Origin: Escherichia coli
GTDB taxonomy: Bacteria; Pseudomonadota; Gammaproteobacteria; Enterobacterales; Enterobacteriaceae
Reading direction: 5' to 3' (one strand)
Assembly (NCBI RefSeq): GCF_002854065.1
Contig: NZ_CP024154.1
DNA length: 64,000 nt
Part shown: positions 6,001-9,000 of the stretch, piece after piece
Numbering within the stretch: position 1 is the first letter of the stretch
How the letters are laid out: each line of letters begins with the position of its first letter
Program-made: the position numbers

Positions 6001-9000
6001 GTTCTTTCTCCATTGATGGAGAAGCGGATGATTAACCTGTTAATCATCGTTCTCAGGGCGGTTGTTGCTGTGGCTAACGCAGTGATAGCTCTCCTGGAAC
6101 TGATCCGGGAACTGGTTGACTGATAATCCCGGAAACGTACTTAAGGGCAGAGGGTCACCGCCTTCTGCCCTTTAACAAAATATGCTCAGGTTAAAAATCG
6201 AAAACCTTCCTGCACTTCCTGTGCCTGTTCCCGTGAGTCAAACATGAGCCGGCTTTTACCCGGAACTCCCCAGGAAATATATTCTACATCCACCCACCAT
6301 TTTCCGTATTCTTCATACGGTCCGGATATCACTTTAGTGACAAATGCATCAACCAGGTTCATTTTTACACCTTTCTGTTATTCTGCTTATTACGACCAGC
6401 AGACAGCAAATATTAAAAATAACGCGGCGGTAAAAATGGCAATTTTTTCCATGCTGTATTTTTGCCATTTATTTTCTTTGAAATGGTTTTTTTCTTCATA
6501 TCAGCAAATAATTATTTCTTATTCTGTTTTCTCCAGGTCCATGGTGGTACCGGATTTTTATCTGCCCATAATCCCCGCTTCAGGGCGCGGGCATCACGCT
6601 GGAGCGGCGGGAGAGTATAGTCATTATTGTAGTCCGGGTACACCCAGGCAGCGCCGTTACGGACCTGCCAGCGATTTGCTTCTGTGCCGTCAGCGGTATA
6701 GACCCGGCCGAGAATACGGCCATACCTGTCTGTCTGCGCGTATTGCACGGTTACGGGCTTTCCGGCCACCAGGTCCTTCAGCTGAGTGGCTGACCAGCGT
6801 CCAAAGGGCTGTTTCTTTTCCGGTGCATCAATATTAGCCAGACGGACCCTGACAGGCTTTTTGTCCTGTAATATTTCCAGCGTATCACCATCAAGAACGC
6901 GGATGACGTGCCCCTGAATCTGTGCGGCACAGAGAGAAGCGGAAAAAATAATGGTGAGTGAAAAGATATATTTTATCATTTCATCGTCTCCTTTTTATTT
7001 ATGAAAACAGGTGCAATTAATATTGCGAAATAATAACGTTCAGGTGTTTTTTTTTGGCAGTGTGATACTTCACGCAGGGCATGAATTCCAGTACGCTGAT
7101 ATCCGTGATGATACGGCAACAGATATCCGGTGACGGTATGCAGGAACATATTGATTATCAGATTGAGAAATATCAGTTCAGGGCCAGGAATGAGTCACCG
7201 CGACTGATGCGCCAGTGGGAAGATGTCATGCGTGAATGCCGTGATACCGGAGCAGGAGCCAGGGAGCGGCTGCGGATTGCCTTACTTAATGTTGATTATG
7301 TGACCAGTTTTGAACTGCCGTTTCGTCTGCTGTTAACCCGGACACCGCAGATGATTGACAGCGTGCGGCGGGAATGGCAGCTCAGCCAGAAAAAAGTCGT
7401 ATTCAATGAGCGGCAGCGGGGATGTGTATACAGTCTGCAGAATGACTTATCCGGCGTGCCGGATAGCTTCAGTTACAGTCTTGCGACGCGAATACGGCGG
7501 GTGGACAGCTATGGCATGACGACGCGTTGTTTCACTGATATAGCCGGGCAGGTTAAAGCCCCGACAGCACGGCTGAAACTGGCGCTGGAAAGCGGGTTAA
7601 TTGTCACCGCGCTGGATGGTCTGTTCTGGCTTGGTATTCAACGTATTGCCGCAGATGTGCAGCGGCTGCGTCAGTCCGGAATGACAATCATCACCCGGGA
7701 TGTTGAGGTCTCAGACTCGCTGACCGGAACCACACGGGTTGTTTCCGGGTACAGCCTTTGATTTATGCAACAAAGTATCGCAGCGTCGAATATGAGCTAT
7801 GGCCAGATTTTTGTTAATCGTGGTTGTTGCAACATGTAAGGCGAATGACCACACTATTCTGGCACGCTCGTAATCATGCTGAAATTCTGCTTCCTGTCCT
7901 GCCGTGATGAGTTCCGACCAGGACATACGGCGAAGTGTATGTCTGTCAGTAATATCCGTCATGAGCTCTCAGCCTCCTCCTTCGTATTTCCGTCAGAAAC
8001 ACAAACGCCCCGCAGAGAAAATTCGCCAACATTCTCCTTTTTAATGGCGCGCAATGCATCGCGGCAGGCCCGTTCGGTATGAAAGGCCTGGCTGTGCACC
8101 GCCAGTGTGGGCTGACGGGCATCACCGGAAGAGACATTAAAGGGCGATGAAAGCCAGAAAATCAGTAGCCACATGCGTCACACCTCGTCCTTTTTATGCG
8201 GGTATCTGGACAGAATATTGAGCGCCTGTAATGGCGCTTCATGCATTTCACGGATACAACGGGCATCGGTGATATTTTCCCGGTAATGTGTGGTTTCCAG
8301 CATCATATGATGCATATGGAGCATCCGGGCCAGGGCTGCGCGGAGTTCTTCAATATGTTGTTCATGGGAATGCTGGCGGGGCTGTATCCGGCAGAGAGGG
8401 ATAACCTCCACATCATCCGGGTGCGCGCGAAGCCACGCGTCAGTGACTGCAATGTCGTCAGTGTAAAACCATGTGCCGGATGTCCCGTTGGCCAGAAAAC
8501 GCATTTTCCAGGCTTCTGGGGTGGCGGTTGTGTTGTTATCTTTCATGGTGCCACCACTCATTCAACAGGCTTAATGCTGTCCAGGCGCAGTCTGCTCAGA
8601 CTGCCGTGGCTGCCACAGCGGCGTCCAGTGCTTTTGCTGTAGCACTCCTGCCCCCTGATACACCATGCCGTTGGCGTTTCGTAGAGGCTGACACGTCGGG
8701 TTTTATCTTTAATGATGAGAAGCCCGGTGTGAGTTTTTGTCTTTTTCATCGGTGGGGTACAAACGCAGAGATTTTGTTGTCATCAGTTTTTGCCTGCAGA
8801 GGCCTGAAAAGACAGCGTTTTCAGGCCCTGTTCAGGTTAGTGAATATTCTTGCCTGGCCTTTCGGCAATATCAATCCCCTGAAGTTGCATGGATATCCCA
8901 TGCCCATTGAGCATCTGGCTGTCCATGGAATTGATACCGCATGTCATCATCAGGTTGTAACAAAGCGTACTCAGCATGGTGAGCGCCTCTTCTGAGGATT

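Follow-up and report, generated by a model that had tools for sequence, protein, structure and literature searches.

A cluster of small genes between nuc and pnd on an antibiotic-resistance plasmid of Escherichia coli (RefSeq assembly GCF_002854065.1, contig NZ_CP024154.1) was analysed in a stretch of 64,000 nucleotides (nt), the whole of which is referred to as the window. In this cluster, a plus-strand gene for a DNA-binding protein of the ECs1377 family and the last gene of a minus-strand string of small genes, which encodes an 83-amino-acid protein resembling the ANR transcriptional regulators, run towards each other and share their 3' ends. The arrangement is best explained by two real, independently expressed modules, the tails of which overlap incidentally, and a probability of roughly 0.8 was assigned to this reading. 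The locus is an ordinary accessory locus, and the 3'-to-3' overlap needs no special mechanism.

According to this explanation, the region would be an accessory patch of mosaic structure, located in the transfer region of a plasmid of the I complex (IncK2/Z), in which recombination would have set two independent modules tail to tail. The first module would consist of the single plus-strand ECs1377 gene, which in sister plasmids heads a unit of a DUF2569 gene and a phosphoethanolamine-transferase gene that is missing here; the second would be the minus-strand, coupled string of five genes that ends in the ANR-like gene. The modules would meet exactly where the DNA-binding gene has its stop codon, and the ANR-like frame, which here lacks its own stop at the point where its core ends, would run for 16 more codons through the antisense of the other gene to a chance stop. 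Because the junction sits at the stop codon and the ANR-like frame reads on in this way, the overlap is regarded as a probable by-product of recombination, and both genes could be expressed independently as ordinary convergent genes.

Layout of the locus

The window derives from an IncK2/Z plasmid of the I complex and is 100% identical at this locus to CP056607.1 and NZ_CP141226.1. The cluster is flanked by nuc on one side and by pnd with its sok RNA on the other, all within the IncI-type transfer region. The following features were assigned (positions in the window):

6512..6979, nuc (SNase), flank of the cluster
7138..7761, plus strand, ECs1377-family DNA-binding gene, 207 amino acids (226 from the ATG at 7081)
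7711..7761, both strands, convergent overlap, 51 nt
7711..7962, minus strand, ANR-like small protein, 83 amino acids, 9.4 kDa; core at about residues 13–67 (7762–7926), variable tail at residues 68–83
7759..7787, mosaic junction of the two modules (DNA-binding gene and small genes)
7959..8174, minus strand, gene of a 71-amino-acid protein, N-terminus MWLLIFWLSSPF
8178..8546, minus strand, gene of a 122-amino-acid protein (127 if the start is at 8561)
8558..8749, minus strand, gene of a 63-amino-acid protein, string member upstream of the three small frames described earlier
8837..9079, minus strand, gene of an 80-amino-acid protein, first gene of the string; the frame can be extended to 9157 (106 amino acids)
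9255–9411, sok RNA (Rfam), flank of the cluster
9409..9561, pnd (Hok), flank of the cluster

A previous reading of the DNA made without database searches (the sequence-only reading) had described an uncharacterised cluster of small genes between nuc and pnd, one member of which converges on a larger gene, and both the location and the coupling agree with the present analysis. Its open reading frames (ORFs) were recovered in the ORF list (plus strand, 7081..7761, 226 amino acids; minus strand, 8178..8561, 7959..8174 and 7711..7962, with 127, 71 and 83 amino acids). The same applies to the tight coupling of the small frames (the 127- and 71-amino-acid ORFs lie 3 nt apart, and the 71- and 83-amino-acid ORFs share an ATGA in which stop and start overlap) and to the hydrophobic N-terminus of the middle one. 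The small frames had been said to overlap the 3' end of the plus-strand frame by about 50 bp; the length was accurate (51 nt, 7711–7761), but the 83-amino-acid ORF alone takes part.

The minus strand carries five genes (80, 63, 122, 71 and 83 amino acids, the last of these being the terminal one), which form a translationally coupled string and are presumably carried on one transcript. On plasmid records the Prokaryotic Genome Annotation Pipeline (PGAP) calls the plus-strand gene (from 7138) and the genes of the 71-, 122- and 80-amino-acid proteins; the 63-amino-acid gene is called in some plasmid records only, and the 83-amino-acid ORF is absent from the PGAP annotation on these plasmids, pCT included.

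Coding status of the 83-amino-acid ORF

The 83-amino-acid ORF is a genuine gene under purifying selection. Its frame was open in all 11 loci examined (comparison loci and proteins are numbered with L and P, respectively). Constraint was judged from diverged alleles, since close copies had too few changes. A translated search returned a 56–58% identical copy (51–58% protein identity overall) in other IncK2/Z and IncI-gamma plasmids (L003, L004, L008), and the identity of the protein persists where nucleotide BLAST no longer picks up the region. In these three loci the gene order is different: The whole small-gene string lies across nuc, on its other side, and the ANR-like gene overlaps nothing and is annotated by PGAP with 90 or 107 amino acids. 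Comparison with these alleles over a core of 49 codons gave ratios of nonsynonymous to synonymous substitution rates (dN/dS) of 0.07–0.22, with about 13/12/29 differences at the three codon positions, and no stop codons in the 83-amino-acid frame versus one to four in each other frame. For a third allele (74 amino acids, P0033, loci L019–L022) a dN/dS of 0.30 was obtained, with codon-position differences of 11/13/26. The start of the gene at the ATGA coupling site is preceded by the sequence GGAGG.

Chromosomal copies were also found. About 800 copies of the junction region (ca. 93% identity) were detected among the 5,426 complete E. coli genomes searched, those of sequence type 131 (ST131) among them; the island in which they lie also contains iha. 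On ST131 chromosomes, insertion sequence (IS) elements have reduced the DNA-binding gene to a 3' remnant and the small-gene string is intact, with the ANR-like ORF annotated by PGAP as a 90-amino-acid protein coupled to the 71-amino-acid gene. The small genes can therefore do without their partner. Because PGAP calls the 90-amino-acid form where the DNA-binding gene is truncated, the gene was probably dropped on the plasmids through the handling of overlapping calls by the pipeline.

Origin of the overlap

The 51 nt comprise, on the plus strand, the final 16 sense codons of the DNA-binding gene together with its stop codon and, on the minus strand, the final 16 codons of the ANR-like ORF, which are not conserved, together with its stop codon. 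The conserved core of the ANR-like protein extends to about residue 67 (nucleotide 7762), directly outside the DNA-binding gene, and the tail beyond it varies between lineages in both sequence and length. In the ST131 copy, a 2 nt deletion shifts the frame of this tail and leaves the core unharmed. The C-terminal tail of the ANR-like protein is thus variable and appears to be dispensable. The C-terminus of the DNA-binding protein, on the other strand, is conserved in its family (T198 and R200 invariant, Y205 nearly so). The sequence-only reading had allowed for comparative genomics to find only one strand conserved as coding; this is the case within the 51 nt, where constraint comes from the plus-strand gene only, but not elsewhere, where both genes are conserved as coding.

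Conservation across related plasmids of the I complex, which had been proposed as a check, was examined, and the overlap was found to be absent in L019–L022 as well as in L003, L004 and L008. The sister plasmids L019–L022 are about 98% identical to the window over 6100–7759 and over 7787–9700. Between 7759 and 7787 they carry 2576 bp (the DUF2569 and phosphoethanolamine-transferase genes), so the two genes stand about 2.6 kb apart, and the ANR-like gene has 74 codons with its own stop. In the ST131 copy, the identity to the window switches from about 80% to 99% at 7761/7762; further breakpoints were located near 7860 (L005) and near 7943 (L019). By these comparisons, the overlap is a mosaic joint, and probably a by-product of recombination and not a regulatory device.

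A plain deletion of the 2.6 kb DUF2569/phosphoethanolamine-transferase segment was considered and rejected, because the ANR-like allele itself has also been replaced from about 7943 onward. For the same reason, the event is best described as a replacement of allele plus cargo, the direction of which cannot be fixed. The 2.6 kb unit, the transferase of which belongs to the sulfatase family, was observed directly downstream of ECs1377 in L019 (5457–7640), L003 (4092–5502) and L004 (4055–5465); the PLSDB rows for L003 and L004 do not include the phosphoethanolamine-transferase unit among the predicted resistance genes.

Relationship of the 83-amino-acid protein to the ANR family

ANR stands for AraC negative regulator, and the family consists of small anti-activators that bind H-NS as well. 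ANR proteins are of low molecular mass (<10 kDa) and act by binding transcription regulators (PMC4983702), the binding having been assayed by two-hybrid, pull-down or complementation experiments (PMC4983702, PMC5570504, PMC10148876). The family includes Aar (enteroaggregative E. coli 042), Cnr (enterotoxigenic E. coli (ETEC) H10407) and Rnr (Citrobacter rodentium, enteropathogenic E. coli), which bind other regulators and not DNA; the established targets are AraC/XylS activators and H-NS-family proteins, and not winged-helix proteins. The proteins are predominantly alpha-helical with three conserved helices, and members that are merely 25% identical still have a common function. A signature of A10, E14, A22, W26, A29, W43 and R47 together with a highly conserved Cys has been published (PMC4983702; PMC4038620).

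A profile search of 1.84 billion representative proteins placed the 83-amino-acid protein in a small clade with 31 representatives. All 17 aligned members of the clade match ANR_neg_reg at E ≤ 0.05, the relatives score 23.7–41.1 bits on the ANR model, and two of them pass the curated cut-off of 32 bits (P0048 with 41.1 and P0053 with 34.9). Alignment with Cnr of ETEC H10407 by hhalign (probability 87%, E 4e-6) was ungapped over 52 residues (S16–K67 versus Cnr 8–59). Five of the seven signature residues and the Cys are retained in the clade at matching positions (A22, E26, A34, W38, A41 and C61). The protein is small and basic, with a mass of 9.44 kDa for all 83 amino acids and 7.89 kDa for amino acids 1–67 (ETEC Cnr, 7.45 kDa), which is under the 10 kDa given for ANR proteins (PMC4983702), and its gene, as those of the family, is found on mobile DNA of pathogenic and commensal E. 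coli. The protein is therefore classed as ANR-like, its clade being a homologous sister clade outside the curated threshold and not a curated member.

The clade also differs from the family in several respects. Signature W43 is replaced by L53, and position 57 has H or K in place of R47; the protein is extended at its N-terminus by about 12 residues and carries the variable C-terminal tail; and the gene ends a string of five with no AraC/XylS gene nearby, in contrast to ANR genes, which are solitary and stand beside an activator.

No Pfam match was obtained for the protein because Pfam holds no ANR model; Cnr itself has no Pfam match. Sequence searches of solved structures with the ANR-like profile gave weak matches to helical repeat proteins only (NrfG, E 0.013) and no ANR structure, and a tblastn search of a phage genome collection with the 83-amino-acid protein gave no match. 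The earlier statement that none of the products carries a recognisable motif is wrong for two of them, the 226-amino-acid product (HTH_39/ECs1377) and the ANR-like protein.

Database labels for this protein were checked as well. The name "FlgM", given by PGAP to the 90-amino-acid allele WP_244445624.1, was rejected, since no Pfam FlgM match at E ≤ 1 was found for the L003 and L008 alleles or other members. A role as anti-sigma factor for the nearby protein with a sigma-70 region 4 domain was dismissed as well, its sole basis being this label. "Neurotensin receptor R8" is an unsupported database label for the ANR-like protein, for which the literature gave passing mentions only.

The best-scoring relative, P0048 (41 bits; L023, 5001–5234), was located in the middle of an F-type transfer cluster (TraG_N, TraU, TraC_F_IV), adjoining a DUF1187 gene. 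ANR-like genes therefore recur as cargo in the conjugation regions of unrelated elements.

By analogy with the family, the 83-amino-acid protein would be expected to modulate a host or plasmid regulator through protein–protein binding. H-NS/StpA is a more likely target than an AraC-type protein, as judged from the gene content of the plasmid, on which no AraC-type gene is found. It is further proposed, tentatively and with considerable doubt, that the gene might represent a branch of the ANR family, carried on plasmids and islands, that is no longer linked to AraC-type activators and acts on H-NS/StpA/Hha or another regulator within a phage-derived module of five genes.

Alternative explanations

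The sequence-only reading had offered a choice between one spurious gene set and an antisense interplay; neither is favoured here, as both genes are conserved as coding elsewhere without overlap and the overlap itself is not conserved. That the 83-amino-acid ORF is a spurious antisense shadow, with only the plus-strand gene and the annotated small genes being real, is considered highly improbable. The omission of the ORF by PGAP on plasmid records would fit such a shadow, as would a ratio of nonsynonymous to synonymous polymorphism (pN/pS) of merely 0.64–0.68 among close copies, for which the mirror frame scores lower, and an ANR score of the protein itself under the cut-off. A shadow would not, however, be expected to keep 51–58% protein identity beyond the reach of nucleotide BLAST in the sole stop-free frame at a dN/dS of 0.07–0.22, with an independent allele at 0.30, nor to start at a coupling site behind GGAGG; moreover, PGAP and other gene callers annotate the homologue where no gene competes for the DNA, and 17 of 17 family members match the ANR model. 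Slightly less remote, and still improbable, is a functional overlap in which convergent transcription over 7711–7761 makes the two units mutually exclusive, in the manner of an excludon or antisense switch. The units converge without a strong intrinsic terminator between them, which makes read-through antisense RNA physically plausible, and the arrangement is a frequent one, with 370 plasmid records covering 80% or more of 7000–8800 and about 800 chromosomal copies that carry the junction. As in excludons, two convergent genes have coding regions that overlap at their 3' ends; in contrast to excludons, the overlap in the window is just 51 nt long, covers an apparently dispensable tail and is not conserved among sister replicons, and nothing at the sequence level pointed to a long antisense transcript at the locus or to reciprocal dependence. 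Nor is the overlap kept wherever the genes co-occur: It is missing in the sister plasmids of about 98% identity (L019–L022), where the genes are 2.6 kb apart, and in the more diverged lineage of the I complex with reordered genes (L003, L004, L008), and on ST131 chromosomes the string is intact beside the truncated DNA-binding gene. Folding of the overlap RNA was no better than that of shuffled sequence on either strand (z −1.7 to +0.8), one weak hairpin (7736–7757) lies inside the overlap, and the promoter/terminator scan gave counts no higher than in shuffled sequence. Rfam returned nothing on the cluster and, outside it, sok, AgrB and a weak OrzO-P match.

A dedicated partnership, in which the ANR-like protein would act on the adjacent ECs1377 protein (for example as an anti-activator) in a pair analogous to AggR/Aar, is regarded as unlikely, though less so than a regulatory overlap. 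It is favoured by the mode of action of ANR proteins, which work by binding transcription regulators (PMC4983702), and by the proximity of the two genes, which are no more than about 3 kb apart in each of the three arrangements of the I complex. Against this, the known ANR partners belong to the AraC/XylS and H-NS families and are not winged-helix proteins, ANR-like relatives occur without an ECs1377 gene nearby, ECs1377 homologues occur without an ANR-like neighbour, and the ANR-like gene persists on ST131 chromosomes after truncation of the DNA-binding gene. The preferred reading of two independent modules, of which one ends in an ANR-like gene, has its own counterweights. No promoter above chance was found for either module in the promoter scan, and the pN/pS of 0.64–0.68 in close copies (91–99% identical) is based on small counts, with too few changes to decide. 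With respect to the ANR assignment, the protein itself reaches 20.6 bits (E 3e-4) on NCBIfam NF033650 (ANR family transcriptional regulator), below the curated cut-off of 32; Trp45 of Aar, which was functionally tested and is needed for Aar activity, corresponds to Leu in the clade; and the window copy has Gly where the clade has Ala22. Furthermore, no AraC/XylS gene is annotated on the 98 kb plasmid NZ_CP141226.1, and none was found among the neighbours of the relatives P0033, P0048, P0053, P0047 and P0051.

The ECs1377-family gene

The plus-strand gene is a genuine gene, likewise under purifying selection. Its product matched the equivalog model NCBIfam NF052300 (ECs1377 family) with 300.6 bits (cut-off 190) over positions 2–190 of 190, and a winged helix of Pfam HTH_39 (PF14090) was found at the C-terminus above the gathering threshold, in agreement with the predicted fold. 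The AlphaFold2 model (pLDDT, the predicted local distance difference test score, 86.9) comprises an N-terminal alpha/beta domain and a C-terminal winged helix; fold searches with this model gave winged-helix folds as the sole matches, and the N-terminal domain had no structural match in them. The 711 relatives found in the database come from across the Enterobacterales, and nearly all that were listed have 207–213 amino acids; PGAP likewise starts the gene at 7138; for these reasons, the true start is probably the ATG at 7138, giving a product of 207 and not 226 amino acids. The gene had a pN/pS of 0.46 among close copies. It is named "helix-turn-helix domain-containing" by PGAP and "ECs1377 family protein" in newer RefSeq records, and the protein is presumably a transcription regulator. 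The literature on ECs1377 yielded a passing mention only, in a comparative genomic hybridisation survey.

In length and score the window gene agrees with the family (full-length, high-scoring, 207 amino acids, as in chromosomal homologues of Citrobacter, Kosakonia, Rahnella, Enterobacter and Serratia); it differs from the copies in sister plasmids in the lack of the downstream DUF2569 and phosphoethanolamine-transferase genes. A 64% identical chromosomal homologue (L012–L015) was observed in an E. coli genomic island together with AlpA, Hha and two DUF7828 zinc-ribbon proteins, as well as a convergent gene for a 63-amino-acid DUF4222 protein and a NERD/UvrD helicase gene. The presence in this island of Hha, an H-NS partner, may bear on the regulatory idea.

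The other genes of the string

In the 71-amino-acid protein, the hydrophobic N-terminus (MW[LI]LIFWLSSPF) is invariant and two cysteines are conserved; the protein has a pN/pS of 0.16 and a match to phrog_3766 (E 2.5e-11). It is 41% identical to an unannotated 56-amino-acid ORF between EaD and Eaa of Klebsiella phage 2b LV-2017 (KY271395.1; L026, 2998–3168), which is translationally coupled to both of these genes and shares the hydrophobic N-terminus and the two cysteines. Phage annotation thus misses this small-protein family as well.

The strongest constraint in the cluster was found for the 122-amino-acid protein (pN/pS 0.10). The PGAP call and the alignment agree on a start at 8546, so the ORF described with 127 amino acids most likely encodes 122. 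The 42 homologues found are all close, those with names come from E. coli and its mobile elements, and they carry no Pfam domain with the exception of one fused product. No match was obtained for the protein itself in Pfam, NCBIfam, PHROGs or PADLOC, and its AlphaFold2 model was unusable (pLDDT 48).

The 63-amino-acid protein (pN/pS 0.25) matched phrog_1226 (E 1e-16) and is about 43% identical to early-region ORFs of Stx-converting and other lambdoid phages. Annotation of its gene is inconsistent, with three versus four hypothetical proteins among otherwise identical plasmid records. The 80-amino-acid protein is annotated by PGAP (pN/pS 0.28) and had no family match in Pfam, NCBIfam or PHROGs. 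The PADLOC defence models matched none of the cluster proteins.

At least two members of the string (63 and 71 amino acids) thus show homology to accessory genes of lambdoid phage early regions. In common with the "ea" genes of these regions, the ORFs of the string are short, tightly packed and translationally coupled, and the homologues of the two proteins (about 41–43% identity) are found in Stx-converting, Klebsiella and other temperate phages, beside EaD, Eaa and EaE. The string differs in being located on a conjugative plasmid and chromosomal islands and not in a prophage; the 122- and 80-amino-acid proteins have no PHROG match (phage genomes were not searched with either), and the 83-amino-acid protein has none in phage genomes.

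The string was further seen to travel with the adhesin/siderophore-receptor gene iha, both on an ST131 chromosome (NZ_CP103508.1; L009, 6037–7417) and on an IncF plasmid (CP088615.1; L006), with the 80-, 122-, 71-amino-acid and ANR-like genes annotated. The chromosomal copy is flanked by IS66, IS3 and other transposase debris. From this debris and from the occurrence on both kinds of replicon, it follows that the module moves between plasmids and chromosomes.

Neighbouring features

Outside the cluster, the DinQ-like gene dqlB (6028..6123, plus strand), which encodes a type I toxin, adjoins a match to the Rfam AgrB antisense RNA (5679–5766, minus strand, 47.7 bits). dqlB/AgrB is a second type I toxin–antitoxin locus at a distance of about 3 kb from pnd/sok, and two copies of dqlB are present in sister plasmids. 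Between pnd and excA, a 528-amino-acid protein (9699–11285, minus strand) has a sigma-70 region 4 domain as well as a TnsA-like endonuclease N-terminal domain; it gave a weak SspB-like match in PADLOC (E 4e-4) and appears to be encoded by the "putative sigma factor" gene of pCT.

Significance

As a by-product of the analysis, a conserved gene was recovered that standard annotation overlooks on hundreds of resistance plasmids of the I complex, pCT being one of them; it is carried by epidemic IncK plasmids and by ST131 chromosomes. A paper of 2026 on pCT gives no data for this part of the plasmid. The locus clearly illustrates how annotation pipelines discard one of two overlapping real genes. 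In diarrhoeagenic E. coli, relatives in the ANR family bind H-NS and attenuate virulence regulators. The presence of a diverged ANR protein on plasmids encoding extended-spectrum or AmpC β-lactamases and in about 800 of the 5,426 complete E. coli genomes searched leads to the testable hypothesis of a regulatory crosstalk between plasmid and host. If the proposed action on H-NS/StpA/Hha or another regulator is true, the presence in a cell of the ST131 iha island or of an epidemic IncK/B/O/Z plasmid (for example pCT) would allow the module to adjust silencing or the expression of host genes.

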